Under the pieces are notes generated by a model, which made no database searches, was not told the DNA's origin, and saw nothing but the letters and a program-made list of their open reading frames with translations. The translations under genes and the position numbers were made by a program. A DNA stretch of 40,891 bases from the NCBI GenBank assembly GCA_003501835.1, contig DNOU01000031.1:13033-53923 (forward strand), in the 5' to 3' direction. Positions 6,092 through 28,008 of this stretch are shown piece by piece. Source of the DNA: Anaerolineaceae bacterium (GTDB lineage Bacteria > Chloroflexota > Anaerolineae > Anaerolineales > Anaerolineaceae). Within the stretch, counting starts at the first letter, position 1, and each line of letters begins with the position of its first letter.

Positions 6092-6093
6092 CC

Positions 6094-6972: not shown

Positions 6973-6973
6973 G

Positions 6974-7776: not shown

Positions 7777-7777
7777 C

Positions 7778-10399: not shown

Positions 10400-10400
10400 T

Positions 10401-11180: not shown

Positions 11181-11183
11181 GGA

Positions 11184-11381: not shown

Positions 11382-11399
11382 GAGACACCTCGTTTGATT

Positions 11400-11431: not shown

Positions 11432-11445
11432 GCTATTCCCTGGGA

Positions 11446-11799: not shown

Positions 11800-11810
11800 G
11801 ATTCACCTCC

Positions 11811-12788
11811 TTATTTCGCCGTGATGCCGTACAACCGGGCAACGCTGCGCGGATGGGAAACTGCCAAACCGGTCACCCAATCGATGACCGATTTGTAGGT
11901 TACCTGGTCGTCCATCAGGGTGGGTTCGGAAACTTCCATGTCGTACTCCTGCCATCCGGTGAAGTATTCATCACCGATCCGGACCGCATACACGCTGGTC
12001 TGACCGCCACCCGTCAGAGCGGTGCCGTTCTCGACATCCGTGATCACCTGGGTGGTGTCGTCAAACTTGTAGCCCATGTCCACCAGTTTGGCTCCCTTGT
12101 ATTCCGTGAAGATCCTGCCCAGGGCATCTGTGGTGGTGGAAAGTTGGTTGGACTGGCGCATGATGGATTGGAAGCGAAGCAGGAAGGTGTCATTGCAGAG
12201 CAGGTACGCGTTCTTGCCACCTGCCTGAATGCTTCCGGTCACCGCATAAAGCAGGGCATCCAGGGCATCAAAGAATATCTGGATGTTTGCCGCAAGACCG
12301 GTGGCATCTGCGCTGATGTCGACGTTGGCATTAATGCGTTGGGATGCTCCCAGGTCATTTTGAGTGCGGTACCACAACCCCACCGGGTTATCCAGATCGG
12401 CGGGCAGTCCGTTGATCGCCTTGTCGGTGAAACCCCGGGCAAGGGCGCGGCTGATCATCTGCATCTGGTAAGTCTTGGGGTCATAGATGCGCGGCGTTTT
12501 ATCACGCATTAGGGCTTTATCGAAAAGCAATTCATTGCCAATCGAATAAGCCATTTCCTCCACCTCATTGGGCTTACCGGCTTTCACCGAACCATGTGGA
12601 GATCCCAGCTTGCGCCAGGGTACATTGGGCATCGCGCCTTCGCGGACCACCTTGATCGCAAGAGCGCTGGCGGTTACAAAGGGCAGGATGTCCATAAAAG
12701 TAGATTCCTCACGAGCTGTGCGCGCCACGCCGGAAACAAGCGGCTTTGGGGATTGCGCATAATCTGCGAGGGTCATTCTTTCGGCCAT
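11811..12788 (-). CDS. Major capsid protein (HK97-fold type expected)
   Basis: 325 aa, AAGGAG RBS. Directly follows the scaffold gene, with size typical of an MCP. Confidence 0.75.
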   Translation of the reverse strand: MAERMTLADYAQSPKPLVSGVARTAREESTFMDILPFVTASALAIKVVREGAMPNVPWRKLGSPHGSVKAGKPNEVEEMAYSIGNELLFDKALMRDKTPRIYDPKTYQMQMISRALARGFTDKAINGLPADLDNPVGLWYRTQNDLGASQRINANVDISADATGLAANIQIFFDALDALLYAVTGSIQAGGKNAYLLCNDTFLLRFQSIMRQSNQLSTTTDALGRIFTEYKGAKLVDMGYKFDDTTQVITDVENGTALTGGGQTSVYAVRIGDEYFTGWQEYDMEVSEPTLMDDQVTYKSVIDWVTGLAVSHPRSVARLYGITAK

Positions 12789-12814: not shown

Positions 12815-13528
12815 TCAGCCGAATTTTTTGAAGTAGTCATCCAGCACGTCTTTCCCTGGGACATTCAAGGGTACGGCGTTGCCGGACTGCCCACCCTGTG
12901 CCAGGGCGGGAATCCTTCCAGGACTGCCTGATCGTTCCTCGCGCGCTTTTTTGTCAGCAATTGCCTTTTCCACGGATTTCAAGAATTCAATGGGTGTCTT
13001 TCCCCCGATATTCTTGAGTTCAGGATCGTTCTCGGTGATGTGAACCCCGGCCTCTGCCATCATGCGATAGCTTTCTGCTGTGGTTCCATTGGGTTTATCA
13101 ATGCCATCCTCCTGCATCCAGGAAATTGCCTGGTTGATGACAGGATCGCCTTGTTGGGGAGCTGGCTGATTACCCGGCTGGGCTGCCTGGTTGGTCAGAA
13201 CTTCCCCGGATTGCCCACCCTGCGCTTGTTGATCCTCATGGGTAACAATCGCCTGGGCTTGCTCGCGTGTGACATTCACGCCAGCCGCTTGAAGGTCGAC
13301 AATTTTCTTGTTGATCCGCGCTTCCATTTTGCCGGTCATGGATTGTGCGTTACGGAGTGCTTCCGTAATCTTTTGCTCCATCTCGGCTTTGGTTACAAAC
13401 TCTCCATTACCAGTCTGCGCCTGCGTTTGTGCGGTCTGCTCCTGGGTCGGAGCAGGTGCCGGTGCAGGATTTGCAGGTTGCCCTCCCTGTGCTGGCTGGT
13501 TATTATTGGTTTGCGTACCCTGAAACAT
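12815..13528 (-). CDS. Scaffolding protein
   Basis: Gln/Ala/Pro-rich N-terminus then helical charged region. I prefer ATG 13528 (AGGAGGA RBS) because the track start at 13630 runs through the terminator hairpin. Immediately upstream of the MCP. Confidence 0.65.
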   Translation of the reverse strand: MFQGTQTNNNQPAQGGQPANPAPAPAPTQEQTAQTQAQTGNGEFVTKAEMEQKITEALRNAQSMTGKMEARINKKIVDLQAAGVNVTREQAQAIVTHEDQQAQGGQSGEVLTNQAAQPGNQPAPQQGDPVINQAISWMQEDGIDKPNGTTAESYRMMAEAGVHITENDPELKNIGGKTPIEFLKSVEKAIADKKAREERSGSPGRIPALAQGGQSGNAVPLNVPGKDVLDDYFKKFG

Positions 13529-13549
13529 TGGATTGATCCTCCTGGTGAC

Positions 13550-13587
13550 AAAATAAAAAACGGGACGCGATTTTGGTCGCGCCCCGT
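13550..13587 (-). terminator. Intrinsic terminator in the leader of the scaffold/capsid/tail block
   Basis: Minus-strand RNA ACGGGGCGCGA-CCAAAA-UCGCGUCCCGU (11 bp including one G:U) followed by UUUUUUAUUUU. The same position is an A:C mismatch on the plus strand. Confidence 0.75.
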
Positions 13588-13631
13588 TTTTGGCAGTCGG
13601 GCTTGTGAATCTATTTGGTCTTGTTATCAAT

Positions 13632-13660
13632 ATTCTAGCATATTCATTTTTGAATTACAA
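13632..13660 (-). promoter_or_regulatory. Sigma70-like promoter (TTGTAA-17 nt-TGcTAGAAT) overlapping the end of the giant gene
   Basis: -35 at 13660-13655, extended -10 at 13640-13632, 17-nt spacer. Read by eye, no experimental support. Confidence 0.5.
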
Positions 13661-13662
13661 CA

Positions 13663-16600
13663 TCATTGCACGAAAGATTGGGATACCACGGTGTCCAGGT
13701 ATTCATTGATGGTGGGTGATTTCTTGCCGCCCAATTCCCAAATGCGTTTGATCTCTGACCATGCCCCGGATGATAGGGGTTCGCCTGTCGTGTAATAGTC
13801 CAGTAATTGCCGGATCAGCGGGTTGGTCATTTGCTTTAACTCGGCTTCGCTCAGGCTCGGCGTGTTGTTCTGGTATTCCTGGGCTTGATCTTCAAAGTAG
13901 CCAGCCAGCTCCGGGTGTTGTGCTTTGAAATTCCTATTCCAGCTCCAGTAGTTTGCCAGCTCCGGATGCGATCTGAGGAATGCCCTGCGTTTATCCAGGG
14001 GTTGGGCATCCCAAAACTTGCTGTAGGCTTCCTTGTCGCCGGCGCGGTATGCCGCCTGCACGGTTTTGTAGGTGTCGGATAATTCAGGGTGGCTTCCCAG
14101 GTAGGCTTTCTTTTGCTCATCGGTCACCCTGGGCAGGGCATAATACTGCTGCTGCAATTCATACCAGTTGGGGAATCTGGCATTGCGCTCCTTCTGGTAA
14201 TTCTCTGCTGCGTTGGCAATCACGGCATTATAGTAGTCCACCTTCTGAATGTTTTCATCTTTCAAGCTGGACGGCACCATACCGCCGATCTGCTGCACCC
14301 ATTTGATCAGGGTCTTGTCGCTCACTGTGTCGGTGTTGCGGGTATTCTCATCCAGGAATGAATCAATGAATTCCTGCCCCAGGGCTTCACGCACTTTCTT
14401 TTTGTTCGGACCTGCCAGACTGGTGTATTTGCGCCACACCTGATCCACCAGGAATTCATGCAGCCGGGTGTCGGGATCCGCAAACAGGGCAAGGCGGGCT
14501 TCATACTCCGGATGATCTGCGAAGAAATCATTGATGGCAGATTCGTCACCTGTTTTGAATTTCTTCCAGGCGTTGTTGTACTCGTCCTGCAATCCTCTTA
14601 GTTTCAGCTCCCCGGTGGGGAACAGGCTGCCGCCAAAGATGCCTGAGAGGAATGCCGGCAGGATCTCATACCATTTGGCGTTGTTCTTCAAGGCTTCAAA
14701 ACCGACCACTCCCGGTGTGCGCATTGCGCTTTCGGTTGCCACTCTTTCCCTGGCCATGTCAAACGCTTCGCCCTGTCTTTCGATCATGGCAATCCTGGCT
14801 TCATCAGCAGTGATCAAACCCTCTCCGGCCATGTTCGCAAGCTGGCGGTCAATGTAGTAATCCCCCCATTGCCCAAACTCGGATAACTTATTGGCTTTGC
14901 GGATGGCTTCTTCGGGACCGGCAAGCAGCCCACCCACAATATCGGTCAGTCCCTCGGCAAAGGTATCCTTGCCAATTTCGCGCACCGCTTGACCGGTCCG
15001 GGTGATCGGCAGGACGCTGATCTTTTCGGGGGTGCCTTGGGCAATGTTCTTCGGGATGGTCCACCACAGAGCGGGGGATAGCATCATGGTCGCCAGGCTT
15101 GCAGGGCTGATGTTCTTATCCAGGCTTGCCTCTGCCTGTTTTACAGCGCGGTTCCAAATATTGCCAGAGTGATTCTGCTTGGCATCCTTCGCTTCCTGCG
15201 GGGTGATCAACCCGGCGTTCAGCATCTCATCCACCTGGCTTTCGGCTTCCGCACCCACCCTGGCAGAATCCCTGGTGTACTGGTCGATTGAATCTGTGAA
15301 TTGCTCGAATGGGAATAACTGTTTCATCGGATCGATCCAGTAACCACCACCCATCCAATCTGGCATCCATGGCATCGGGATCCTGGACTTGCCTTTCAGC
15401 CTGGTGGGCATTTTCTGATCCAGTTTTTCCTGCATCTGCTTCATTCTGGCATACATGGCATACCAGCCTGGGCGGTCCATCATGCGCTTTGCCCAATTGT
15501 AGTAGGACCGGGTGTACCAGAATTGATAGGGTGAAATAATATTCAAGAAATTATCCACCCCATATCTTCTTGAATAATTCAACAGGGCAGAATCACGCAT
15601 CTGCTCCCCGTAATTCATGGCTGATAGCTTCATTCCCGCCATGTCGTTTTTCACCGAGCCGTTGATATAGCGGGTGATCTCCTTGCGGGTATCCTCGTCC
15701 AGGCTGCCAATGCTGAACTTCCTGGCTTCACCCATTTGCTTTTTGTATTCCTGCCCAAATTTGTCCAGGATGGTGCGGAGGTATTCTGAATTGATCTCGT
15801 GCAAGACCTCGCCGTAGGGTTCTGTAGAGGGTGTTCCGTTCAATGGAACTTCACCCATGGGAGCTGTTGTATCTACTCTCCCTGGTTCTTCTGGCGCTCC
15901 TCCCCTTCCTTTTCCTTCCTCAACATATCCAGGTAAACCTGCCCCGGCACGTCCATATCCAGACCACTCTCCGGGTAATCCCGCTCCGGGAGTTTCAATT
16001 TGCCCTGGTTGTACAGCTCCACGTTGCGCAGGAGATTCTCCATAAACTCTTCCGATGTCTTTACCATACCGTTGTTGGAATTGTTGCCAGTGTTCTCTGT
16101 CATTGATGCTTTCTCCTTTCTGATTCTTGTTTAAGATCACCCGATAATTGTTATTGTCATTGTAAAAAAGAGTGGCTTTGTCTGCCAGGGGATATAACTC
16201 CATGAAGTTTTTAGGAACATTTTCGTTTGCCATCCACAGGAAGTCTTGTGGAATGTACCTTCCGTTGTTATTCGCCCTGGCTTTCATTCCCTCCCATGCT
16301 TGCTCGGGTTCGACATCCACCATAATCAAGGTGACATCATATCCAATGGTTTTTAGCCTGGTAAGTAAATTTCGGTATTTCTCCGGGCTGGACCCTACCC
16401 CGTCTATGATCACATTCTTTCCAGAGGTGATCGCTTTCTCTTGAAGGGCTTTTGCCATCTCACTGGATTCTTCATGCACTATTGCTGGCCCGCTTTTGTT
16501 TTTCCGTCTGGCTTCCACCTCAAATTCGGGGAGATAGGATTTTGCCATGTCGGGATCCACCACCACGTAGTTGGAGATTAAATCTCCCTGGGCGAAAGAC

Positions 16601-19600
16601 ATATCGCGGACTGATGTTTTACCACTTGCAGGTAAACCCATCAGGATGATGGCTCTGGGTTGTTGACCTTCCGGGGGTGGTTGAACGGAATCAAACTGAT
16701 CTCGGATGAATTTATCGTGCAATTCTGCGCGATCTGCTGTCCATTCATTATTAATTTTATACCGATCAATCGTCTGTGTCAAGCTGTCATCGTTGATCCA
16801 GCCCTCAATATCTGGCAATTCGTGCCGTTCTCGTAAACCCACCTGGAACAGGGATGGGCTGTAAATATCCTCTGGGTTGGTTCCCGAAGTAATCACTTTG
16901 CCACTCGCGTCCAGGATGCGGTAAGTGATCTGCTCTCCCTGGTGCAGTTTGAGGGTTTCTTCGATCTGCCTTAGCTTCTGGATGTCGATTCTGACATAGC
17001 TCGTGCCATCACTTCCCCTGATTGCAAGTTCCACAATCCGGGTGGGTTTTGCTTCCGGCACCAGGTCTTCAAACAGGGACATTTGAGGACTGGCTTCTTT
17101 CGGTCTGAAATCAACATCGTCCACCGGGATGGGGGTGCCGGAGAATAGCGGTAAATCCTCCTGTGATTCGCTGAACATATTGATTTGATTGCGATTGCTC
17201 TGGATCTTCCCTTGCTCCAGGCCTGGCGTGGGTTCTGCTTTTTCAATGGATGGATTATCCGGGTCAACCTTCTTGATCTCGCCATCAATCTCATACACCC
17301 AAAGAGCGGGGTTCTCGCGGTCAATCCCCAGCAGCCTGGCTTCACCACCATTGGCGTTGAACTCCTTGAACAATTCTGGATGGGCAGGATACAGGGCAAT
17401 GGGTTCACCGTCCCTGTATACCTCGGCCACCACGTCATATTGACCGTGTTTGAAGGCGTAAACCTTCTGGATGTAGGTGCCTTCCCCTGGTGGATAGGAC
17501 GCGTCTGAATCCACCAAGGGGATCGGTGTGGTGCGGTTGCGAGCTTCAACCCGAAGCAGAGATTCACGCGCCAGGTCAACCTGTTTTTTGACAAAGGCAA
17601 TTTCCGCTGCGCTGATCTTGCTGCTGGTGGGCGGTTCGCCGTGTTCGCCATCCAGAATCCAGTTGGCGTACTCACGTGCATATGCGCGCTGATCTTTGTC
17701 GGAGATCAGCTTGTTGATTCCATTCGACAGGTATTCAGTGACCTGATCCCATTGGGGTACTTTGTCTGTGTGATTCAGATCGATGTTTTTGATCTCGTCA
17801 ATCGGGACAGCTTCACCCTGGTCATACAGATCCTTATAGCTGTATTCCTTCTGGACCATGGCGAGCTTTGCCCTTTCCTCTTTGCTCAACGTGGAAAGGT
17901 AGGATGCTTCCCCCATAACGTACTTGTACAGCCAGATGCCTTCACCTTCGGTCATCCCGCCAGCTTCGAGACCGGCAAGTTTTTCCAGGGTGGCGCGGTC
18001 ATTGGTTTCAATTGCATCCTGCCGGGCTTGATCCAGCAGCCACTGGTCGGATCGGATTTGCGCTTCCCTGGCAGCTCTGCGGTTCTGCCGGCGTCGATTC
18101 AGGATTTCGATCTCGGCCTGCGTTTTGACCGGAGCTGGTGGCTCGACAGGTGGTGTTTCAACCGGCTGGGGTTGGGCTTCTATTTTTGGTTGTTCTGCTC
18201 CAGGTGGGGGAAGTTTTTCTTCCACCATTCCCGGTCCTGCTGTTTCTCCTCCTCGGTCATTTGGGGGTACGACCAATGCCGCTGGGGCGGTGGCTTGGGC
18301 ATCCACTTGTCCACCGTTGGCTTGTTCGTTTGAGAGGGCTGGTTCGTACTTTCCACCGGCTTGCTCGAATCTTGTTTGCGCGTCATACATCACCTCTTCT
18401 TTATTTCTGAATTTCTGATCTCCAAATAATGAAGCCTGGCGTGGATCAGGTTCTTTCAATGCTTCGTCCACATATGTGCGAATGAAGTCTCGCAAAGGTT
18501 TTTCGTTTTTCAACCCCGCCATCATACGTAATAGAAATTCCTGGGTACGGGTCAATGGCTCCACAAACATGGGTGGGGTATTGATCAATTCATCAATATT
18601 GCCAAGTTTATTTTGCTGTCTGAACCACCTCAATCGATCTGCAGCTACCGCAATATCATTTGAAAGCGATAGATCAGGGTTAATCCTACCCCGTGAAATA
18701 TCCCCGTCAAGCTCTGCCAGTTGTGGCAGGACTTTGTACATAACTGATTCGACTGTGCGCATTTGCGCTTTTGTATTGAAGGTGGTGAATTGATCCAGCA
18801 ATTGTTTGGCAGCATCATTGGTATAGATGTTGGCAAACATGGCATTCTTGATCCGGGTAATTGCCTTCTCGGTGAATTGACCTTTTACAATGTATTGCCC
18901 CTTCTCTGTGTCTGCCACCTTGTTCTGTAGGAAGGACGTGATAAAGTCTCGATTGGCAGCGCGCTTAAGCATCCCCTCCACAGTGTCATCATCGCCCACT
19001 TCCAGTTTTGCCAGGGCTTCTTTGGAGATCGAACCCACATCGTTGACGGCAATTTCCTGATCATTCATCGCCAGGTTTTCGCGGGTGTTGGCATCGTTCA
19101 CAAACTTTTTGATGGCATCCGCATCCATTGTGTCATCAAGAACCCTGACCAGTACCGGGTGTTTCATGGTCTTGAAGCTTTCAGGATCAATGCCGTGTTC
19201 CACCGCATAATCGTCCAGGGCAGATCGGTATTCCAGCCACCTGTTGGGGTAGGCGTCGATGGCTCTGGAGATGTACAGGATGCGACCATTGCCTGAAAGC
19301 ACCATGTTATCTTGATCCAGGATGGGTGCGCCCCGGTCTATGGCTTTGAATTCGTCCAGTAATTTCTCCGGATCAAGTTTGCTGGCGTTGTTTTCAATTT
19401 GCTCACGGCTAGCTTGCGCCTGGCGGTCACGTGGCTGCTTCGCCTGATCGTAAAGGGGATTTGGTTTGATGGCATCCCCTTCGAATCTGTCGCTTGAAAT
19501 GATGTCATCCAGCTCCATGACCGCGTAGGTCATCTTGTACCTGGTGTCGCCCTGGATGCTCTTGGCGCTGGTCTTGCCACCCATGATCCTGACCACTTCC

Positions 19601-22600
19601 GGCTTGTGCCATGGAGCAAGATCCGGATTTGTCTCCAGCTCCCGAAGTGCGTCATAAACAGCGGTATCGTGGATCAGCTTACCATCATCCCCCTGCAGGT
19701 AATTATCCACCGCGTCATCCACGAATTTGATGGCTTCTTCTTCGCTGCCAAACTTGCCCAGTACGTACCTGGCGGCTTCCTTCTTTGCCATCCGGGTGAT
19801 CTCATCATCGTTGAAGCGATAATTCCTGCCGCTGTTCTTGATATCCTCGAATCGCCTCCGGTAAATCTGATCCCAGGATTGTGGCCGGCTGGGCTGGTCC
19901 ACCAGCATTTTGTCAAAGATGTCTTTCAGGGATACGCCATTGATCTTCGCCTGAATGTCTACGGTCTTTCCACCCACCGTGAAATCCTGGGCGGTTTCAA
20001 AACCACTCACCCTGCCCCCCGTCTTGAATAGCTTGTGGTAAATATTCAGCATCCAGTCCGTGAATTTGCGGAAGACGGACTTGAGCGCCATGGTGGGAGC
20101 ATCCCCTTCTGCCAGGTATCTTTCCCATCCCCGGGCAAATGTTTCTTCCGCCTGAACGTACCGGGCTGCCTCCTCGGGTGTTGCAGTTGCGCTCCAATAC
20201 CTGGCTTCAAGGTTTTGCAATTCCGCCGCACCGGATAGACCGCCGTGCCTGGCAACGGTGTCCAGGTCTGCCGTGGAAAGATCGCGCCGGAAGATGTGAC
20301 CCACCTCGTGCATCATCGTGCTGAAATCGGGTGCGTTCAAACCCCTGACCAATGCCCGGCCATCTTCCAGGAAGTTGATGGATCCTCGTGCTTCGCCCTG
20401 GCGCAATTCCTGGGCAAGATTTTCAAATAATCCCTTATTGGTGATCTTACCGTTGTCGTCCAGTGCAAACCGGGTGGCGTACCAGTAATCCCGGTAGGCT
20501 TCACCAGGTGCGAATCCAGTCTGCAATGCCAGGGTATCCGCATGGGATTCCATCACCACCATGGCGGCATTGACCTCGGTTTCTGAGACGCCATATTGCC
20601 TGATCAGGTATTCCTTGATCTCTTCGCGGGTGGCATATCCCCGCTCCCGGATGGTTGCCATGCGTTTCTGCCTGTCGGCAATCAGGGCGATGTCCTCCGC
20701 CTGGGTCTTGGCGGTAATGGTTTCCCTGGCCTTGGTCACCTGGTGCGCCAGGTAGTGTTGATTGAAAGCGTATTCTGCCAGCTCCGGGGGCACATCCCCC
20801 AGGTTCTTGAAGTCTGATTCAAAGTATGGCTTCTCGCCATTGGCATCAATATAATCCTTACCATATTTGCGGATCACGTTGAGGGCATACCTGGCAACCG
20901 GGTTTCCCTTCTTATCGGTGATTCCAAATTTGGCGGCCAGGCTCATGATCTGTTCACGCTTTGCTTGGGCAGCCGCGCCGGCTGCTTCTGCTGCAGGTGC
21001 TTCCTCAATCCAATCCGGTTCTTCTGGAACCAGGGGTTTGGGTTGCCTGGCAGGTGGCACTTCCACCTTCTTTTCTGGTTCGGGAACTGGCTGCCTGGCC
21101 AACTCGAATGCTCCCCTGTTCTCCAGCTCCTTCATATCGGCGATCATGCGGTTGTAGATCGGGTTGAATTCGGCGTATGCCCGATCTTTTTCTTCACCCA
21201 CCATGTCCGCAGTTTTCTCACGGATGTCCAGTTGCGCCTGAACTGTCCTTTTGCGGACCTCCCGGATTGCCTTGCGCCACTCTTTGGCTTTTTCAATATC
21301 CCACCCGGTAAACTCGGCGTAGGATTGTGCAAATTCCTCATCCATCCCGGTTTGTAGTTTTTCTTCCAGGGCGGTGGCCTTGTTGTACAGATCGTTGATT
21401 TTCTGCTCGGTGGCTTTCCACTCGGCATTGGTTCTAGATTGCCAGGTGTCGTAGGTTTCCCCGTCTTTGCGGTGGGAATTCTCAAAGTATCTGTCGCGCA
21501 GCTTTCGGGTTTCCTCGTGGAACTGTTTCCAATTGTCGTGGTTCTGGTTCAGAAGATCGATGAACTTGCGTGATCTCTCGTTCTTGATGTCCAATCCATC
21601 AAAGATTCCGCTCAGGGTTTGGGTTTCGAACTCGTATACCCGACGCCACTCCTTGTCCTGGCTGGCAGACAGGGCTTTCCATTCCTTGTTCCATTGCTCG
21701 GAGCTGAATTCACCCTGTGATTTGCGGTAGTACAGATCGTCCACCGCCTTACGCGCATTTACCCAATGCTGCCCGATCATGATCTCGGTGTCGCCGTATA
21801 ACTGGAGGACCCCCACCAGCTTTTCCTTGTTCACAATGTTGACCACTTCCAATGACCGCTTGGCAATTTCCCTGCTAAATGCGGCATCCACAAAGGCATC
21901 CACCTGGTCACGGATCTCCCAAATGGCGGTATCCACCTGGGAGGGATCTGTCGCATCTTTCAGTTTGACGAATAACTGATCCATGATGCTGGTCTTGGTC
22001 AGCATATCTTCCACCATGCCGGGTTCGCCTGGATAAAGGGTATCGCTAACCTTCTGCGCCACCTGGGAAATCGAGGGCTTCATATACTCGCCAAAGATTG
22101 CCTTCTCGATCTCGTCAATGTTCATGCCGGCTTCGATTGCGCCGTAAAGCACATTCTTCATTCCGGGTGCACGTTGATCCAGGATGGCTTCGATGCTTGG
22201 GGACATCCTCTTAAATCCCTGCCCCTGCTTCCAATTGCGATTCCAGAAGGTGGTGATGCCAATGATGGTCGCCTGGCGCGATTCTGACCGCTCCACCGCT
22301 CCGGATAGCCTGGAGAAAACACCGGCACCCCGGTTGATCTTGTCGATGCGCTTCTGGCTCTTGGCAATCAGGTCGCTGGCCTCGGTGGCTTCTGCGATAA
22401 TCCCTTTGCCGCCGTAGATCGCGCCCTCATCTGCTGCGCCCACGCCCACATCCAGCCTGGGTGGAGTGATCCGCAGCCGTTCCAGTGTATTGTTGATCTG
22501 CCTGGGGGTCAGGAATCCGAACACGCCCACGGATGCACGGGTGACAATATTATTGATGGCATTATTCAGAAAGTAAGCAGGGTTCAGCCCCAGCAGGAGC

Positions 22601-24732
22601 AGGGATTGTACTCCCTTCAAGGTGTTGGATAACCGAAACACCCAGCTATTAGGCTTCAACCCCAGGGTATTCTGAAACCACCCATCCATCTTGTCTGCCA
22701 TGTTGATCAACAGGTGGGCTTGCATTTCAGTTTCGGACCATGGCAGGGCATCCTTGCCGGTGAATACACCCAGGGTATCCTTGATAAATTTGGCATCTCC
22801 GACCTGTGGAGCAACGTCATTGATGCGCCGGATCAGGGTATCCGGTTCGAGTTCCAGTTGTTCCAGGATGTTGGCCGGCTTTTCTTTCAGGGCATTGGCA
22901 ATCTTCATCAGGATCATGCGCCGATCTTTGCTGGCGTTCCAACTGATCAGCATGTTGTCCAGGGAATTATCCTTCGTGGCAGCATATTTGATCGCCTGTT
23001 GGATGGCTGTCATGGCCGGAGATTTCAATATCTGCTCGCCAACATCTCCCCTGGCAACCTTTTCCAATCCGGCTGCCTGTCTCCATAGTTTGCCCATCAG
23101 ATCCACATCCCCGTTTGCCGCGTCCATCAGGGTGGCCATGCTGGAATGGAATGTGTTCAGCATCAGGTGGGTTTGAGATTCGGGGGTCAGGCTGGAAAGC
23201 TTTTGATACCACTTCATCCCGGTGTTGGGTCGAAGCTCTTTGAAGCCATAGGTGTCATCCAGCCCACCAATAAACTTTTCAAAGTCGGTCAGGTCCCTGG
23301 CTTCTGGGATTTCCCTGGGGGCGCGGCTGGCCTTGTAGGTTTGCTCTTTGCCGTTAGCATCTTTCCAGATCACCCTGTCGCCTTCATAACGGATGGTGGC
23401 AGGATCGACACCGGACCTGGTCAGTTCTTCCACCTTGGCGCGGGTATCCGCCGGGTAGTCTGTATAATCACCAGCATAATGCCCAAAGCGGATCGAAGTT
23501 TTGTATTGATCCAGGGTCTCGAAGATGCCCGGGGTGGAGCGTTGTTTGGTTACGGCTTCCGCAAGCTGCTGAACACCAAAGGGAAGGGCATCAATTGCCA
23601 GGTTGCCACGGGTTTCCTTGAATGCGGTGGCCAATCGTTCATTGCCGCGGAACCTGGCAATCTTCTCGCCTGCCGCGTTCATTCCCCTGGGTAAAAGCTG
23701 CATGGGATCAAGCACGGATTGCAGCGCAAAATCATTGACGATGCCCGATGCGCCGTACTCCAGGGTGAATTCAGCATAGGTTTGATCCGATGCTTCCCTC
23801 AAGGTTGCGCCCTCATTCATCAATTCATTGATCCGCGCCTTGGCTGCGTCCATGGCTTTGACACCCTTGCCATATGCCGGCAAATACTGACCACTTTTAC
23901 CCTGTTCAAAACGGAACACGCCACCAGGAATGCCGCGGTATTCTTCGTTATAGGCAGACGCCAGCAGTTTAGCCAGCGGTTCAAGTACGCTAAAATCCCC
24001 GGTCTCATAGGCCAGTCTGGCGGCTTCCCAGTTGACCGGAAGATCCTTGAAGGATTGTTTTAGATTTTCAAAATTAAATACATCGATATTCTTAAAATCT
24101 TCTCGGACAGCAGCCATATTCCTGTCATCGATTATTTTCCAGGCTTCCTTTTCGGAAACATTGTATTGCTTCATCGTTTCTTGCAGTTCTTTGTCAAGCT
24201 GCTGACCAATCTGCTTTCTATCCAGGCTATACATCAGGTTGATGCCATAAGTCTGCTCCACGGCCTGTGCAGCAAAGTTAAAAGCCATCAAAACCTGACT
24301 TAATCCTGGCACTTCTTTCCCGGTCAGTCCTTGATAGAACGTGCCCCCACCCAATGCCAGCGCCCCCACCACCATACCTGGCAATTTCCCAACCGTCTGT
24401 CCGATTTTTCCGCCCAGTAGGAACATAGGCCAAGATTGAGAAAGGGTGCCAACGATCTTCGAGCCAAGAGGTCGGTCTGCCAGATTCTGTGTTTGTGCGC
24501 CGGACATCAGCAGGGTGTTCAGAGCTTGTTCGTATTTCAGCAGGTCGCCCCATCTACCCTGGGTGTCTTGCATTTGCTGCATCTGTTTGGCACGGAGCTC
24601 CCGAAGTGCATCTTCCCCCCATAGAACCTGGGAAGGTGGTTGCTTCATCTTGCGGAGGTAGTCAAGTCCGCTATCCCCTTCGGGCAGAGATTGCCATTCA
24701 TACCAGGGCTTGCCCTCGTTGCGTTCACTCAT
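13663..24732 (-). CDS. Giant multidomain virion-associated (polyvalent-type) protein, 3,689 aa
   Basis: Single uninterrupted 11,070-nt ORF, ATG with AGGAG RBS, TGA stop. Contains an HEVGH zincin motif, a QPRDR...SGNGR ParB-like motif and a GLPASGKT Zeta-like kinase, separated by Pro/Gly-rich linkers. Lies between the portal-proximal genes and the scaffold. Confidence 0.9.
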   Translation of the reverse strand: MSERNEGKPWYEWQSLPEGDSGLDYLRKMKQPPSQVLWGEDALRELRAKQMQQMQDTQGRWGDLLKYEQALNTLLMSGAQTQNLADRPLGSKIVGTLSQSWPMFLLGGKIGQTVGKLPGMVVGALALGGGTFYQGLTGKEVPGLSQVLMAFNFAAQAVEQTYGINLMYSLDRKQIGQQLDKELQETMKQYNVSEKEAWKIIDDRNMAAVREDFKNIDVFNFENLKQSFKDLPVNWEAARLAYETGDFSVLEPLAKLLASAYNEEYRGIPGGVFRFEQGKSGQYLPAYGKGVKAMDAAKARINELMNEGATLREASDQTYAEFTLEYGASGIVNDFALQSVLDPMQLLPRGMNAAGEKIARFRGNERLATAFKETRGNLAIDALPFGVQQLAEAVTKQRSTPGIFETLDQYKTSIRFGHYAGDYTDYPADTRAKVEELTRSGVDPATIRYEGDRVIWKDANGKEQTYKASRAPREIPEARDLTDFEKFIGGLDDTYGFKELRPNTGMKWYQKLSSLTPESQTHLMLNTFHSSMATLMDAANGDVDLMGKLWRQAAGLEKVARGDVGEQILKSPAMTAIQQAIKYAATKDNSLDNMLISWNASKDRRMILMKIANALKEKPANILEQLELEPDTLIRRINDVAPQVGDAKFIKDTLGVFTGKDALPWSETEMQAHLLINMADKMDGWFQNTLGLKPNSWVFRLSNTLKGVQSLLLLGLNPAYFLNNAINNIVTRASVGVFGFLTPRQINNTLERLRITPPRLDVGVGAADEGAIYGGKGIIAEATEASDLIAKSQKRIDKINRGAGVFSRLSGAVERSESRQATIIGITTFWNRNWKQGQGFKRMSPSIEAILDQRAPGMKNVLYGAIEAGMNIDEIEKAIFGEYMKPSISQVAQKVSDTLYPGEPGMVEDMLTKTSIMDQLFVKLKDATDPSQVDTAIWEIRDQVDAFVDAAFSREIAKRSLEVVNIVNKEKLVGVLQLYGDTEIMIGQHWVNARKAVDDLYYRKSQGEFSSEQWNKEWKALSASQDKEWRRVYEFETQTLSGIFDGLDIKNERSRKFIDLLNQNHDNWKQFHEETRKLRDRYFENSHRKDGETYDTWQSRTNAEWKATEQKINDLYNKATALEEKLQTGMDEEFAQSYAEFTGWDIEKAKEWRKAIREVRKRTVQAQLDIREKTADMVGEEKDRAYAEFNPIYNRMIADMKELENRGAFELARQPVPEPEKKVEVPPARQPKPLVPEEPDWIEEAPAAEAAGAAAQAKREQIMSLAAKFGITDKKGNPVARYALNVIRKYGKDYIDANGEKPYFESDFKNLGDVPPELAEYAFNQHYLAHQVTKARETITAKTQAEDIALIADRQKRMATIRERGYATREEIKEYLIRQYGVSETEVNAAMVVMESHADTLALQTGFAPGEAYRDYWYATRFALDDNGKITNKGLFENLAQELRQGEARGSINFLEDGRALVRGLNAPDFSTMMHEVGHIFRRDLSTADLDTVARHGGLSGAAELQNLEARYWSATATPEEAARYVQAEETFARGWERYLAEGDAPTMALKSVFRKFTDWMLNIYHKLFKTGGRVSGFETAQDFTVGGKTVDIQAKINGVSLKDIFDKMLVDQPSRPQSWDQIYRRRFEDIKNSGRNYRFNDDEITRMAKKEAARYVLGKFGSEEEAIKFVDDAVDNYLQGDDGKLIHDTAVYDALRELETNPDLAPWHKPEVVRIMGGKTSAKSIQGDTRYKMTYAVMELDDIISSDRFEGDAIKPNPLYDQAKQPRDRQAQASREQIENNASKLDPEKLLDEFKAIDRGAPILDQDNMVLSGNGRILYISRAIDAYPNRWLEYRSALDDYAVEHGIDPESFKTMKHPVLVRVLDDTMDADAIKKFVNDANTRENLAMNDQEIAVNDVGSISKEALAKLEVGDDDTVEGMLKRAANRDFITSFLQNKVADTEKGQYIVKGQFTEKAITRIKNAMFANIYTNDAAKQLLDQFTTFNTKAQMRTVESVMYKVLPQLAELDGDISRGRINPDLSLSNDIAVAADRLRWFRQQNKLGNIDELINTPPMFVEPLTRTQEFLLRMMAGLKNEKPLRDFIRTYVDEALKEPDPRQASLFGDQKFRNKEEVMYDAQTRFEQAGGKYEPALSNEQANGGQVDAQATAPAALVVPPNDRGGETAGPGMVEEKLPPPGAEQPKIEAQPQPVETPPVEPPAPVKTQAEIEILNRRRQNRRAAREAQIRSDQWLLDQARQDAIETNDRATLEKLAGLEAGGMTEGEGIWLYKYVMGEASYLSTLSKEERAKLAMVQKEYSYKDLYDQGEAVPIDEIKNIDLNHTDKVPQWDQVTEYLSNGINKLISDKDQRAYAREYANWILDGEHGEPPTSSKISAAEIAFVKKQVDLARESLLRVEARNRTTPIPLVDSDASYPPGEGTYIQKVYAFKHGQYDVVAEVYRDGEPIALYPAHPELFKEFNANGGEARLLGIDRENPALWVYEIDGEIKKVDPDNPSIEKAEPTPGLEQGKIQSNRNQINMFSESQEDLPLFSGTPIPVDDVDFRPKEASPQMSLFEDLVPEAKPTRIVELAIRGSDGTSYVRIDIQKLRQIEETLKLHQGEQITYRILDASGKVITSGTNPEDIYSPSLFQVGLRERHELPDIEGWINDDSLTQTIDRYKINNEWTADRAELHDKFIRDQFDSVQPPPEGQQPRAIILMGLPASGKTSVRDMSFAQGDLISNYVVVDPDMAKSYLPEFEVEARRKNKSGPAIVHEESSEMAKALQEKAITSGKNVIIDGVGSSPEKYRNLLTRLKTIGYDVTLIMVDVEPEQAWEGMKARANNNGRYIPQDFLWMANENVPKNFMELYPLADKATLFYNDNNNYRVILNKNQKGESINDREHWQQFQQRYGKDIGRVYGESPAQRGAVQPGQIETPGAGLPGEWSGYGRAGAGLPGYVEEGKGRGGAPEEPGRVDTTAPMGEVPLNGTPSTEPYGEVLHEINSEYLRTILDKFGQEYKKQMGEARKFSIGSLDEDTRKEITRYINGSVKNDMAGMKLSAMNYGEQMRDSALLNYSRRYGVDNFLNIISPYQFWYTRSYYNWAKRMMDRPGWYAMYARMKQMQEKLDQKMPTRLKGKSRIPMPWMPDWMGGGYWIDPMKQLFPFEQFTDSIDQYTRDSARVGAEAESQVDEMLNAGLITPQEAKDAKQNHSGNIWNRAVKQAEASLDKNISPASLATMMLSPALWWTIPKNIAQGTPEKISVLPITRTGQAVREIGKDTFAEGLTDIVGGLLAGPEEAIRKANKLSEFGQWGDYYIDRQLANMAGEGLITADEARIAMIERQGEAFDMARERVATESAMRTPGVVGFEALKNNAKWYEILPAFLSGIFGGSLFPTGELKLRGLQDEYNNAWKKFKTGDESAINDFFADHPEYEARLALFADPDTRLHEFLVDQVWRKYTSLAGPNKKKVREALGQEFIDSFLDENTRNTDTVSDKTLIKWVQQIGGMVPSSLKDENIQKVDYYNAVIANAAENYQKERNARFPNWYELQQQYYALPRVTDEQKKAYLGSHPELSDTYKTVQAAYRAGDKEAYSKFWDAQPLDKRRAFLRSHPELANYWSWNRNFKAQHPELAGYFEDQAQEYQNNTPSLSEAELKQMTNPLIRQLLDYYTTGEPLSSGAWSEIKRIWELGGKKSPTINEYLDTVVSQSFVQ
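16123..16659 (-). other. Zeta-toxin-like P-loop kinase module of the giant protein (aa about 2692-2870)
   Basis: Walker A GLPASGKT (16615-16638). VVVDPDMAKSYLPEF aligns to the zeta catalytic-Asp region (VIDNDTFKQQHP). NVIIDGVGSS and downstream Arg-rich KARANNNGRYIP also present. Confidence 0.6.
19183..19527 (-). other. ParB/sulfiredoxin-fold (ddrB-ParB-like) module of the giant protein (aa about 1736-1850)
   Basis: YAVMELDDIISS ... KQPRDRQ (P codon at 19432-19434) ... MVLSGNGRILYISRA (GNGR at 19282-19293). Confidence 0.5.
20053..20535 (-). other. Zincin-like metallopeptidase module (MPTase-PolyVal-like) of the giant protein (aa about 1400-1560)
   Basis: MMHEVGHIFRR (HEVGH at 20296-20310) with downstream EETFARGWERYLAEG, a plausible third-ligand Glu helix. 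Confidence 0.55.
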
Positions 24733-24738
24733 GTACTC

Positions 24739-25119
24739 CTAGGCGGCGGTGATCGCATCCGGGTCTATCCATTCAGGGGGTTGCCATCCGGGTGGTGCAG
24801 ACCGGATGATGTTGTAATTCATGGCAATATTGGTTGGATTCTGCCAATACGAATACTTGGGCGTGGATAGTGCTATGGTTTCTTTTCCGCCTGGTACTGT
24901 CGCATTATTGACAGTTACATCTTGTTGCTTAAGTAGATCCTGAAAATATGGATCGTTCAACCATCGCCTTGGGATGTTATGCCCTTCCCCATTGAGACCG
25001 ATCACCATCACGGCATCAGAACTATTACCAGGCATCTTCCCATGAGGTACTTGATATTCTTCCGGTTTGATCGTGGGGCTGCCCTCCCACGGATTGATCT
25101 TTTCAGGATCGTAACCCAT
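24739..25119 (-). CDS. Hypothetical head-region protein (126 aa)
   Basis: ORF between the portal-proximal genes and the giant gene. Its TAG lies 7 nt before the giant gene ATG. Confidence 0.55.
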   Translation of the reverse strand: MGYDPEKINPWEGSPTIKPEEYQVPHGKMPGNSSDAVMVIGLNGEGHNIPRRWLNDPYFQDLLKQQDVTVNNATVPGGKETIALSTPKYSYWQNPTNIAMNYNIIRSAPPGWQPPEWIDPDAITAA

Positions 25120-25153
25120 TGTCTTCCACCTTATTGAATTGAGAATGCTTTTA

Positions 25154-26026
25154 TTAAATCCGCCAGTTCATCAATGCGTTGTAGTAATTTTGGAGGGCAT
25201 CTGAGTAGGAAGCGCCGCTATAGCCGCCATAGCCGCCATAGCCGCCCCAGGGGTATTCATACGGCCACTCTTGATTCTGGTCTTGATTGGAATAAGTTAT
25301 AGTCTTTGGAGGGGTGGTTAATTGTTTCGCTGCCCGCTCTTTCCACAGGTCTCGTAATCCCCATCTGTATTCTGTATCGTCTGGATCTTGGGTCGGATCG
25401 TAGAATTTGTAAGCAGATGTCGCCAGTGGGTCTACCCCATTGATTAAACGCGTGCGGTAGTATTCATCAAGCACAGACGATTTGTCTTCGGGTTCAGCAA
25501 ACGGATTCTGTAATCCCTCCCAGGGGAATTTGACCTTTGGCTGATCTTCACCACCTGGTATGTTATCAGGATTACCCCAAAGATATAACTGCTTTACGAT
25601 GTCCAGAATGGTGGGTTGCTTGGGCGCGGTGGGTAGTTGTTTCACTACCGGGGTGGGATTTACAAATTTCACCGTGTCGGGAGTGTCTCCCACGCCAAAG
25701 GAGGGTATATCAATATTGCCAATTCCCAAACCTGAATTCCCGCCCCCCATATTGGGTGCCTGAATGAACCGCTCTTGATTTCTCGTGCGTCCACCAGGAA
25801 GATATTCTCTATCTTCCTCCCCCACGTTCTGGCGATTCAAGGACATTTGGTACAGGTACGAGTTGTACCAATCGTTCATTTGCGGACCGTACTTTGGATA
25901 CTTCCGCTGCTGCTGGGTGATCAGGTCAGAATCCTGCGCATCGCCATAGATCACACCCTTGGGTTTTGGTTTCGGTGTCGGTGTCTGCTTGGGTTGGGTT
26001 CTCGGATCATCGTATGAGATTGCCAT
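25154..26026 (-). CDS. Hypothetical low-complexity (Pro/Gly/Tyr/Gln-rich) protein, possible internal or ejected virion protein
   Basis: I prefer ATG 26026 (GGAGG RBS, 6-nt spacing) over the TTG at 26038. C-terminal GGYGGYGGYSG repeat. Largely disordered-looking. Confidence 0.55.
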   Translation of the reverse strand: MAISYDDPRTQPKQTPTPKPKPKGVIYGDAQDSDLITQQQRKYPKYGPQMNDWYNSYLYQMSLNRQNVGEEDREYLPGGRTRNQERFIQAPNMGGGNSGLGIGNIDIPSFGVGDTPDTVKFVNPTPVVKQLPTAPKQPTILDIVKQLYLWGNPDNIPGGEDQPKVKFPWEGLQNPFAEPEDKSSVLDEYYRTRLINGVDPLATSAYKFYDPTQDPDDTEYRWGLRDLWKERAAKQLTTPPKTITYSNQDQNQEWPYEYPWGGYGGYGGYSGASYSDALQNYYNALMNWRI

Positions 26027-26237
26027 TTGGACCTCCAATGAGTTGATCGATCTCGATTGCTTTATCTGGATTGGATTGCTTGATCAGGTCAATCACACCT
26101 GGCTGCATCTTCTCCAGCATCTTCAAAAACATTCGCGCCTGGGGAGCTTCCCATTGCTTTTTAAATTCGGTCTTTCATCCCTCGACCTCTGCCCTGGCTT
26201 CAAGAAAAATATCCTCGGCATCTGAAATATTAGCCAT
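26007..26237 (-). other. Small ORF after portal, interrupted by one in-frame TGA (20 codons, TGA, 56 codons)
   Basis: ATG 26237 with GGGAGGGA RBS, overlapping the portal stop. TGA at 26175-26177. The same frame stays open to the TGA at 26007-26009, just past the next gene's ATG. Confidence 0.4.
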
Positions 26238-28008
26238 TCGTCCCTCCCTGTGGCGTCTGACCCTGACCACCACCTGGGATCATGCCGGCCATCTGCGGTG
26301 GTAATCCACCCTGGATCCGCTGCCCCTGTCCAGCGGCCATCTGTGGATTGGCAAGCATGTCGGGGGTTGGCATCAGACCTGATTGCCCAGGTGGTGTTTG
26401 CCCCTGTCCTTGTGCCTGCGCTGCTGCCTGGGCTTCTGCCAGGGCTTTCTCCTGCGCGGCTTTCTGCTCGGCAGCCTGTTCCTGGGCTTGCCGTTGCATT
26501 TCGGTCTGGATGTAGGCGGCTACCATGGCCTGCTCTGCCTGTTGCGTCCAAACTTTCTTGCGCATTTCTTCCGTGTTCTGAATGTTCAGGATGTTTTCCT
26601 GGATCCATTCATCGTCTGCCAGTCCGGTGTTTTTGAGCATCACAGCAATGTTGGCAAGCTGCAACCGGTCCTGGGGCAGGGAGACATCGAGCTTCACTTC
26701 CACATCCAGATCATCCGGGATCTCCTCCGGTATCAATTCTGATCCGGCGAGTGCCAGAGCTTCTGCGCCATCCTTCTTTGCCATCATCAACATCAGCCTG
26801 GCGACCTCGGCAATTGCTGCCCCGCCCATGCGCTGCGGTCCAATGAGCGGCAAGCGTCCCGACTGGTTGAGCAAAGAGAATTCGCTGAACGTGGTCTGCC
26901 GGTTCATGGGTGCGCCAAATGCCTGGGCGTGGATCGTATTTTCTTCGAGCTTCTGACTGGCCAGGTTCATGCCCTCCATGAAAGCAGGGTCGATCAATCC
27001 CTTGTTGCCCATGGGTTCGAGCTTCTCATTCGCGGACAACTCCACCACACCACCCGGTACATCGAAATTCAATTCAAGTTTTTTGTCAGGGTTCTCCGCG
27101 CTGGAAGTGTGAATAAACATGGCACTGGCTCCCATGCCAAAGATCGTGGTGTACAGGATGGTCATGCTCAGGTTCTGCGCTTTCCAGATCCCGGATTTGT
27201 AAATGGAATAAAGCAAGGGCTGGGTCTGATCTTCTGGCTTGTCAAACAAACCTGATCCATCCACCTGGGTGCTGCTGATGGGAATTTCAGGGAATCCATG
27301 CGGCCCCATCCATATATCGTGACCCTCCACCCAATAAGCGGCGTAGTCCAGATCGTAAAATGTAGACAGGGTGAGCTGCCCGATTCCGTGCTTCTGTTTC
27401 AGTTCATTGGGCAGCAGGTCACCAAAGGTATTCAACAGGTAGCTGTGGCTGACCTTGGTTTCCCGGTAGTAGGCGGTCAAGCCGGCAATGTCAAATTCCG
27501 GATAGCCTGAATGTGGATTCCAGTTTTCCACCAGGTAGGGGGTCATCCTGGCAAGGCGCTCAATGCGTTCCTTGTGCTTGGTGGTTCGCTTGATCAGGTC
27601 TGCCATGGGAGTGATGGCGTTGTCGATCCTGCCATAAAGGACTGCGGATAATAGGGCGTCAAAGTGAATAGGTCGCTTCTTGATCTTGCCTGAGTTCGTC
27701 CACCACCGGGTCAGGTCCTTCTCAATCTTGTCTGTGTCCACGTTTTCATTGGTGGTGGTCACGCTGAATTGCGGATCTGTGGGCAGCATCAAGCGGGTGG
27801 CGTTCAATACTTTGTTCCTGGCATCCGGGGAGATGGTGATCACCGTGCCATCCCGTAGTTGTTTCTTTTCAGTCTCGCCCCATTTCAGATTGAAGATGTT
27901 TTCATATTCTGTGAAATCTTTATGCAGGTTCGAGTAGATAGATTTCAGGTCTGCCGCGTGTTCTTTGAGTTTCCTCATTTGCTCGGTGTCGATCTGGATT
28001 TCACTCAT
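26230..28008 (-). CDS. Portal protein
   Basis: 592 aa. ATGA overlap with the terL stop, with size and position typical of a portal. Gln/Ala/Gly-rich C-terminal tail. Confidence 0.7.
   Translation of the reverse strand: MSEIQIDTEQMRKLKEHAADLKSIYSNLHKDFTEYENIFNLKWGETEKKQLRDGTVITISPDARNKVLNATRLMLPTDPQFSVTTTNENVDTDKIEKDLTRWWTNSGKIKKRPIHFDALLSAVLYGRIDNAITPMADLIKRTTKHKERIERLARMTPYLVENWNPHSGYPEFDIAGLTAYYRETKVSHSYLLNTFGDLLPNELKQKHGIGQLTLSTFYDLDYAAYWVEGHDIWMGPHGFPEIPISSTQVDGSGLFDKPEDQTQPLLYSIYKSGIWKAQNLSMTILYTTIFGMGASAMFIHTSSAENPDKKLELNFDVPGGVVELSANEKLEPMGNKGLIDPAFMEGMNLASQKLEENTIHAQAFGAPMNRQTTFSEFSLLNQSGRLPLIGPQRMGGAAIAEVARLMLMMAKKDGAEALALAGSELIPEEIPDDLDVEVKLDVSLPQDRLQLANIAVMLKNTGLADDEWIQENILNIQNTEEMRKKVWTQQAEQAMVAAYIQTEMQRQAQEQAAEQKAAQEKALAEAQAAAQAQGQGQTPPGQSGLMPTPDMLANPQMAAGQGQRIQGGLPPQMAGMIPGGGQGQTPQGGTNG

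Follow-up and report, generated by a model that had tools for sequence, protein, structure and literature searches.

The results of this work suggest that the largest gene of a prophage in an Anaerolineaceae bacterium (Chloroflexota) encodes a vehicle for bringing enzymes into the infected cell. The stretch of DNA analysed, henceforth the window, comprises 40,891 nucleotides (nt) of contig DNOU01000031.1 (assembly GCA_003501835.1), and the gene in question is an open reading frame (ORF) of 3,689 codons that takes up ~31% of the prophage and whose product we call the giant. In our judgement the giant probably serves a BPP-1/SU10-like short-tailed prophage as an internal virion (ejection) protein with the design of a delivery chassis. 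Comparison with its homologues indicates a conserved chassis, made of an N-terminal and a C-terminal part (N...C), with an exchangeable middle, in which the Zeta-family kinase found here is a rare payload. An earlier reading made without database searches (the sequence-only reading) had taken the gene for a polyvalent protein of the head module, and this stands in part: two hallmark domains are recovered by profile and relatives carry ART-PolyVal, SNF2, SLT and GGDEF domains, but the zincin that was also proposed has neither profile nor fold support. As that reading had it, the gene is a single minus-strand ORF ending in TGA, without internal stop, between portal-side genes and the scaffold gene (Table 1).

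A conserved chassis with an exchangeable middle

At E ≤ 1e-3, an exhaustive HMMER search with residues 1-1200 as query returned 378 clusters of homologues (50% identity), of which 192 pass E ≤ 1e-30, nearly all of the proteins measuring 2,000-5,500 amino acids (aa); searches by word index with the N and HExxH modules gave almost nothing. Modules were then mapped, with profiles built from the window protein, on the best 150 representatives, which are known by protein sequence, without genomic context, and have a median length of 3,080 aa (maximum 5,564 aa). Conservation is highest for N2 (149 of the 150), followed by N1 (138) and the C module (125), which always comes last in the protein, its median distance to the C terminus being 5 aa. 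Between the end of N2 and the beginning of C lies a bay of 1-3,532 aa (median 1,143), minimal family members being N1-N2-C proteins of ~2,000 aa. The HExxH module is found in 104 representatives, Zpre in 72, U2 in 64 (usually just before the C module) and ddrB-ParB in 28, with U1 being rare (five) and the Zeta kinase present in none.

A search with the C module brought up 39 relatives plus one match to the Zeta domain only, and Pfam annotates these relatives only where the C module follows an SLT lytic transglycosylase (three proteins) or an SNF2-type helicase (one protein). Pfam applied to 18 relatives gave ddrB-ParB in four, ART-PolyVal in three, SLT in three, Zeta in two (namely the window protein and its close relative), an SNF2-like helicase in one and GGDEF in one, as well as DUF3990. 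The closest relative belongs to a prophage in the Anaerolineaceae metagenome-assembled genome (MAG) JBDKSE010000012.1 (positions 11-12220); it is 82-88% identical, has the same module order and is no shorter than 4,069 aa (~4,370 for a complete protein). Two additional inserts, one of 156 aa before the HExxH module and another of ~400 aa within U2 (weak DUF3560 match), show recent cargo turnover. Farther away, an N...C homologue of 2,156 aa in which Pfam recognises no enzymatic domain occupies the same slot, behind the portal-position gene, in the environmental podovirus MW202608; in another phage the protein is divided between two genes, N-side (at least 3,313 aa) and C-side (1,234 aa), and in yet another the C module is a stand-alone gene directly before the scaffold and capsid genes. 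Some family members or carriers of the HExxH module are attributed to methanogens (a MAG labelled Methanothrix sp.; BK063671, Caudoviricetes sp. vir555, host Methanomicrobiales), which may be due to mis-binning of organisms that live together in methanogenic consortia, and not to archaeal hosts.

Within the giant itself, the three Pro/Ala/Gly-rich linkers previously described are visible in the composition (11% Pro and 17% Ala at aa 1201-1300; 15% Pro, 13% Ala and 10% Gly at aa 2101-2200; 19% Gly and 11% Pro at aa 2901-3000), and linker 1 and the junction of linker 3 with the C module also have a low predicted local distance difference test (pLDDT) score. The motifs quoted earlier are at their places (HEVGH at 1475, EETFARGWERYL at 1529, QPRDR at 1766, SGNGR at 1813), as are the four HPE[LY] of the C region (3407, 3548, 3589 and 3606), and a fifth HPEL occurs outside that region, at aa 2451. 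N (aa 1-1215), Zpre, U1, U2 and C (aa 2966-3689) have no match in Pfam, NCBIfam or PHROGs, and Pfam run on eight separate segments at E ≤ 5 yielded no additional domains (no MPTase-PolyVal, LPD, Phage_Mu_F, ART or SNF2). That more than half of the protein matches nothing is therefore right for curated libraries but wrong for metagenomes, where the N and C regions have hundreds of homologues. A side observation concerns the linker regions, where QASLF (aa 2099), DLPLF (2528) and QMSLF (2550) occur (~17071-18438). These QxxLF/DLPLF motifs are conserved among the closest relatives as PQMSLF.D.VPE and EDLPLFSGT, and are 1.5-fold enriched family-wide (97 observed against 64 ± 8 in shuffles), with a concentration in the cargo bay. 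In form they are similar to beta-clamp-binding peptides; alternatively, they could mark sites of cleavage.

The 'Gly-zipper hydrophobic helices' of the sequence-only reading hold up as a conserved segment near the N terminus, with the consensus GGxxxGxxxGxxAGxxxG...YQxYTG, but not as a strongly hydrophobic one: the Kyte-Doolittle maximum is a moderate 1.25 over 19 aa, the segment is not a classical transmembrane helix, and the proposed membrane insertion is weak.

AlphaFold models are all-alpha both for the C module (pLDDT 78.9) and for aa 477-1640 (pLDDT 73.8), the latter with very long helices (up to 76 residues) at aa 930-1213. Foldseek returned nothing better than E 0.017 for either (C model against PDB and BFVD; aa 477-1640 model against PDB), so that the zincin fold could not be confirmed and the roles of N and C rest on analogy. 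No likeness of the models to T7, P22 or crAss ejection proteins was seen by Foldseek, and nothing significant came up when PDB sequences were searched with the C-module profile, the unassigned region aa 2185-2680 or the N module.

In one respect the composition of the protein resembles that of known ejected proteins. There is no cysteine among the 3,689 residues of the giant, against 0.69% in the other ORFs of the window (P ~7e-12), and cysteine is scarce throughout the family, with 123 in the 448,183 residues (0.027%) of the 150 N-module homologues, 102 of which have none at all, and five in the 35,207 residues of the C-module matches. Similar counts are obtained for N4 gp50-52 (0 of 4,294 residues), BPP-1 Bbp10-12 (1 of 3,003) and T7 gp15 and gp16 (0 of 2,065); neighbouring genes of N4 and BPP-1 have 0.8-0.9%. 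Lokareddy et al. (2024, PMC11445570) report that N4 gp50 and DEV gp71 lack cysteine, and that suppression of cysteine is conserved in the ejection operon of the Schitoviridae. In the window it extends over the block 12815-28008 (scaffold-like ORF, giant, orf126, orf294 and portal candidate), which has no cysteine in 4,972 residues, and the capsid protein, tail protein, adaptor and terminase of the phage each contain some.

Against the JBDKSE010000012.1 relative, the ratio of non-synonymous to synonymous substitution rates (dN/dS) is 0.115, 0.126, 0.107 and 0.113 in four aligned blocks (dS 0.6-0.8), linker 3 being the only relaxed stretch (~0.37). Values of about 0.11 in every aligned block bear out the purifying selection surmised earlier, and indicate that it acts on all modules, including the unassigned ones.

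Cargo domains

Two of the enzymatic modules that had been recognised by eye are confirmed by Pfam with wide margins over the cut-offs and nearly full-length models. The ParB-like module (aa 1729-1865) matches ddrB-ParB (PF18763) with E 3.7e-28 and 98.5 bits (cut-off 27.6) over model positions 3-120 of 121, and the Zeta-toxin-like kinase (aa 2682-2870) matches Zeta_toxin (PF06414) with E 1.2e-30 and 106.9 bits (cut-off 22.3) over positions 6-197 of 199; in NCBIfam there was only a weak PezT match in the giant.

The kinase domain resembles zeta and PezT in the extent of the Pfam match and, when aligned with zeta (1gvn) and PezT (2p5t), in its Walker A motif (GLPASGKT at aa 2699) and an Asp matching zeta D67, both of which are conserved. 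It differs from them in that the EGTGR of zeta reads DGVGS, the GTxR motif thus being missing, in that there is no antitoxin gene, and in being embedded in a 417-kDa protein. The GTxR motif is part of the site for UDP-N-acetylglucosamine (UDP-GlcNAc) in zeta and PezT, and a Zeta-like domain devoid of it probably has some other substrate.

The third module is less easily placed. The zincin families, MPTase-PolyVal included, do not match the HExxH module in Pfam even at E ≤ 5, its profile has no match among PDB sequences, and hhalign against the MPTase region of N4 gp50 gives a probability of 1.6%; it does match phrog_9880. Still, HEVGH (aa 1475-1479) is accompanied by a conserved Glu (1530, in EETFARGWERYL), and an alignment of nine diverged members, among which is Bbp10 of Bordetella phage BPP-1, has as invariant positions H-E-x-G-H, an Asp, a Gly and, ~50 residues downstream of HExGH, the Glu of "EE.FA.G.E.Y", and 95 of the 102 modules in the family retain HExxH itself. 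Such a pattern is that of a putative gluzincin. The earlier claim of a zincin thus rests on the conservation of HExGH and of the downstream Glu, and lacks Pfam, PDB-sequence and fold support, which makes two out of the three enzymatic modules then named, ParB and Zeta, that profile searches recover.

By tblastn, the HExxH module matches giants of cultured short-tailed phages, namely Bbp10 of BPP-1 (2,052 aa) and proteins of Xanthomonas phage CP2, Pseudomonas phage AF, Caulobacter phage Jess A (2,039 aa), Acinetobacter phage Ab9 (2,839 aa) and Nostoc phage Nsp-JY18 (~4,012 aa). Comparable giants are already at hand in culture, and those of Nsp-JY18, Ab9, Jess A and BPP-1 would be practical experimental models. 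These four are annotated as 'lysin', 'lysis protein' or 'crystallin motif protein', and are nearly cysteine-free.

Resemblance to known systems

Proteins of this kind are already known, both as the polyvalent proteins of phages (Iyer, Burroughs, Anand, de Souza and Aravind 2017, PMC5512222) and as cargo-bearing internal virion proteins (2016, 2024). The N/C chassis, the position between portal and scaffold, the bay architecture and a Zeta-family payload without GTxR, however, are not described in the sources checked.

With the polyvalent proteins of PMC5512222 the giant shares the presence of many domains in one polypeptide (ddrB-ParB and Zeta_toxin above the Pfam cut-offs in one ORF, with at least six further conserved regions), the location among virion genes, the hub domain ddrB-ParB and, in its relatives, ART-PolyVal (3 of 18) and an SNF2-type helicase. 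In the same work an HExxH module is proposed to process the polyprotein, and Zeta-like kinases are mentioned as cargo. Unlike in that set, only ddrB-ParB of the Pfam polyvalent families matches the giant, to the exclusion of MPTase-PolyVal, the LPD families and Phage_Mu_F, and the N and C end modules, half of the protein, are absent from Pfam and PHROGs.

In size (3,689 aa as compared to 3,400-3,500 aa), total lack of cysteine and origin from a short-tailed phage the giant resembles N4 gp50 and DEV gp71. The layout of DEV gp71, i.e., an alpha-helical N region with membrane segments, then cargo, then an alpha-helical C region with a zinc motif (PMC11445570), is also paralleled in a helical N region with putative membrane-type segments, a central enzymatic cargo and a large helical C region with an HExxH/zinc motif. 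Unlike these proteins, it has no RNA polymerase domain (no such family in the giant by Pfam or NCBIfam), its cargo consisting of ParB and a Zeta-family kinase, and its N, HExxH-region, U2 and C modules have no profile match to N4 gp50. The genomic setting differs as well: the gene lies between portal and scaffold in a temperate phage of ~36 kb, as opposed to the gp50-52-type operon of a 70-kb lytic phage.

A possible link, through one module, leads to the T7 gp16 (IVP-D) family. When local profiles of N, the HExxH region, U2 and C were compared with T7 gp14-16, N4 gp50-52 and BPP-1 Bbp10-12, the only match was that of the HExxH module to Bbp10 (E 1e-31, local hidden Markov model), the two modules being homologous, and Hardies et al. 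(2016, PMC4819975) count Bbp10 among the homologues of T7 gp16. Podovirus internal virion proteins are known to host lysozyme domains along with others that are bound for the cytoplasm (PMC4819975). Bbp10 adjoins the SLT protein Bbp11 and the internal virion protein Bbp12 and, like the giant, is large, helical and very poor in cysteine; unlike the giant, it lacks the N and C modules. Between the giant and T7 gp16 there is no detectable similarity, and hhalign against N4 gp50 and T7 gp16 was not significant.

The slot after the portal is that of the MuF/SPP1 gp7 minor head proteins, which the giant resembles in gene position and in carrying effector domains on a head protein, but it is about ten times larger, and Phage_Mu_F failed to match it at E ≤ 5 or the two upstream ORFs at E ≤ 0.01.

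A possible mode of action and its alternatives

What we say of packaging and ejection, of the parts played by N and C, of self-cleavage and of every target is inferred from these comparisons, and the course of events could be as follows. The giant would be made late, alongside the portal, scaffold and capsid proteins, and a few copies would enter the procapsid through the end modules, the C side doing so by analogy with N4 gp50 and DEV gp71. The HExxH region might perhaps also dock the protein there, given that the region of N4 gp50 with the MPTase domain is needed for encapsidation (PMC5512222). At infection the giant would exit via the portal-tail channel in a largely unfolded state, a passage with which a helical, cysteine-free build and flexible linkers would all be in keeping. 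By the same analogies the N module, with its glycine-zipper segment, would probably lead the exit and help to form or cross a conduit in the envelope. The cargo would then act inside the cell: the HExxH module would cut the polyprotein at the linkers, the ParB-like domain would either act on DNA or protect it, in the way suggested for the P1 Dar/DdrB proteins, and the kinase would phosphorylate a nucleotide-type metabolite, which in view of the missing GTxR is probably not UDP-GlcNAc.

Several observations weigh against this interpretation. The gene lies between portal and scaffold, and not after the tail genes like those of the T7- and BPP-1-type internal virion proteins. Neither the N2+HExxH model nor the C model has a Foldseek match in the PDB, nor the latter in BFVD; the N, C and HExxH modules have no significant profile similarity to T7 gp14-16 or N4 gp50-52; a strongly hydrophobic segment is absent; the N...C family is known from sequence alone; and an in-frame TAG that cuts off the first 126 codons could mean that the gene is damaged. 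Three other explanations have to be considered, all of which we find less likely than an ejected internal virion protein.

The giant adjoins the scaffold gene, as does the stand-alone C module of the relative mentioned above, and could in principle be packaged and never leave, as an internal core or scaffold-like head-assembly protein whose enzymes act on packaged DNA or during assembly. MPTase action inside the head has been discussed (PMC5512222), and the portal and scaffold ORFs are cysteine-free as well, which means that in this phage cysteine avoidance is not specific to ejected proteins. We nevertheless hold such an explanation to be unlikely, because the cargo seen across the family (lytic transglycosylase, ART, SNF2 helicase, GGDEF and Zeta kinase) makes sense only outside the capsid or in the host, and because the closest analogues, N4 gp50, DEV gp71 and T7 gp16, are ejected.

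Less probable still is that the giant never enters the virion, being a late intracellular multi-enzyme factor of anti-defence or takeover that is in the head operon by chance. Its enzymatic domains could indeed work within the producing cell, and its packaging is deduced from sequence comparison. However, the position beside the portal, scaffold and capsid genes is kept in distant relatives, cysteine suppression, a published signature of ejected proteins, is family-wide, fusions to SLT occur, and the conserved end modules have no enzymatic signature; late expression, moreover, would be poor timing for anti-defence. The third explanation, that of a damaged gene, depends on what happens at the gene start.

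An in-frame stop codon upstream of the giant

The giant's ATG is not where the gene of this family begins. Immediately upstream, in the same reading frame, orf126 is homologous to the N-terminal ~120 aa (the 'N0' segment) of the giants of relatives, and in every homologue covering the region orf126 and giant are one continuous protein. The junction reads GCC GCC TAG GAG TAC ATG (A-A-stop-E-Y-M), the TAG taking the place of a conserved Tyr in the motif A-Y-x-Y-[L/M] of the homologues, and the ATG aligning with an internal Leu or Met. At the level of the family the gene therefore spans 13663-25119, or 3,818 codons, starts 387 nt upstream of the giant's ATG and is interrupted here by one amber codon. 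This qualifies the earlier description of the gene as uninterrupted, which is correct for the 3,689 stop-free codons but overlooks the 126 severed ones, and the supposed AGGAG ribosome-binding site also needs correction, this 'AGGAG' being formed by the TAG and the following GAG, only 3 nt from the ATG.

A sequencing error can be ruled out, as at least 23 contigs, drawn from several independent samples (metagenomes of hydrocarbon-degrading cultures among them), all have the same junction; these contigs are nearly identical to the window (0-3 differences per 4.4 kb) and may represent one clone. Reassignment of TAG can be ruled out as well, for it is the ordinary stop of 9 of the 32 ORFs of the window and a suppressor tRNA is absent, the only tRNA in the element being the tRNA-Thr at the integration site. 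No close relative spanning the junction was found among metagenome and viral contigs, the nearest (JBDKSE010000012.1) ending before it. The TAG may be a point at which the gene was split and translation restarts by coupling, or else a leaky stop or a nonsense mutation of recent date.

If it were the last, the 11-kb ORF would be the decaying gene of a defective prophage, not made or non-functional, which the TAG at a conserved Tyr codon, an ATG two codons on that aligns with an internal Leu/Met and an SD-like AGGAG (after Shine and Dalgarno) merely 3 nt away would favour, but which we regard as the least probable of the three, given 3,689 remaining codons free of stops, a dN/dS of ~0.11 throughout, a junction shared by all those (possibly clonal) contigs, and a stop and restart 6 nt apart, as is normal for coupled translation.

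Implications

If the chassis model is true, it shows how a small capsid can take up several hundred kDa of arbitrary enzymes and drive them out through a tail channel, the N and C modules being what is needed for loading and exit and the remainder an exchangeable payload. It would also provide simple predictors of ejected proteins (no cysteine, helical ends and flexible linkers) and a catalogue of payloads for host takeover or defence evasion, comprising ParB, ART, SNF2, GGDEF, SLT and the Zeta-like kinase. The design of giant ejected proteins, known from N4-like lytic phages that infect Proteobacteria, would then occur in small temperate phages as well, those of Chloroflexota and of other environmental bacteria. 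It is tempting to go further, to a view that we consider rather doubtful and offer as a speculation: that the N...C giants are a separate and very widespread class of podovirus ejection proteins absent from curated databases, in which one cysteine-free polypeptide merges the ejectosome roles of the T7 gp14-16 type with an exchangeable cargo bay of up to 3,500 aa into a programmable injection vehicle, the TAG being a functional split or read-through that sets the ratio of two forms.

The prophage around the giant gene

Table 1. Positions of the prophage genes and of the modules of the giant in the window
Feature	Position	Strand	Remarks
tRNA-Thr gene	2580-2653		adjoins the integration site
Integrase	2715-3644		next to tRNA-Thr
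Holin	3756-4082	minus	
GH25 lysin	4422-5375	minus	
Several small ORFs	between lysin and 873-aa tail protein	minus	
873-aa tail protein	7778-10399	minus	
SU10-adaptor-like gene	10401-11180	minus	
Bbp16-like gene	11446-11799	minus	
Major capsid protein	11811-12788	minus	phrog_212, E 8e-28
Scaffold-like ORF	12815-13630	minus	
Giant ORF	13663-24732	minus	3,689 aa, 417 kDa, pI 5.2, ATG to TGA, no cysteine
C module	13666-15837	minus	aa 2966-3689, all-alpha, internal HPEL-containing repeats
Linker 3	15838-16047	minus	aa 2896-2965, Gly/Pro/Glu-rich
Zeta_toxin-family P-loop kinase	16123-16689	minus	aa 2682-2870
U2 region	16753-17478	minus	aa 2419-2660, unassigned, motifs DLPLFSG and PQMSLFED
U1 region	17479-18132	minus	aa 2201-2418, unassigned
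Linker 2	18133-18357	minus	aa 2126-2200, Pro/Ala/Gly/Glu-rich
C-terminal extension travelling with ParB domain	18358-19137	minus	aa 1866-2125, QASLF at aa 2099 near its end
ddrB-ParB domain	19138-19548	minus	aa 1729-1865, Pfam
HExxH module	19897-20442	minus	aa 1431-1612, putative zincin
Zpre helical region	20443-20946	minus	aa 1263-1430
Linker 1	20947-21087	minus	aa 1216-1262, Pro/Ala/Glu-rich, low pLDDT
N2 module	21088-23304	minus	aa 477-1215, all-alpha, helices up to 76 residues
N1 module	23305-24732	minus	aa 1-476
Gly-zipper segment	24259-24432	minus	aa 101-158, conserved
In-frame TAG	24739-24741	minus	at conserved Tyr position of homologues
orf126	24739-25119	minus	126 aa, in the giant's reading frame
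Portal candidate	26230-28008	minus	weak phrog_64 match, E 3e-4
TerL (large terminase)	28005-29399	minus	
Two overlapping side-by-side DNA methyltransferase genes	30459-32680	minus	N6/N4 type, 438 aa; C5 cytosine type, 313 aa

Past the integrase, all phage genes from the holin to those for replication and regulation are on the minus strand, and their layout is that of a short-tailed phage of the BPP-1/SU10 type. The portal candidate is separated from the giant by two small ORFs. No tape measure gene is present in the phage, as had been noted before, and there are no large helical ORFs after the tail genes. A tape-measure role for the giant itself was rejected, podovirus adaptor and Bbp16-like genes being present and the tape-measure matches in Foldseek having only E > 0.2. 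The 873-aa tail protein contains a 'choice-of-anchor R' domain at aa 122-283 (NCBIfam NF041539, E 1.6e-10) and is kept in seven of the eight loci of relatives examined, which makes it probably a nozzle or receptor-binding protein.

In one sample the host contig ends just past the integrase and a separate contig of 34.7 kb holds the remainder of the prophage, from which its length can be put at ~36 kb. Breaks 60-92 nt upstream of the integrase gene or just past it recur in several assemblies, which fits strain variation at this site or a mixture of integrated and non-integrated states. Contigs of other samples showed no attP junction, exact matching found no att repeat of 12 nt or more, and megablast against E. 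coli genomes and phage genomes gave no match.

The pair of methyltransferase genes, after which the replication and regulation genes come, has no recognisable restriction enzyme nearby and probably serves the self-protection of the phage. Further on, a 447-aa ORF (36259-37602, minus strand) has a Gp3-like recombination directionality factor domain (PF18897, E 2e-29), which makes it unusually large for an excisionase-type protein. On the other side of the prophage, between a dinB-like gene and the tRNA-Thr site, lies a GT4 glycosyltransferase gene (1242-2567, minus strand) that also matches the Pfam family 'GT4-conflict' and is missing at the same position in a contig of another strain.

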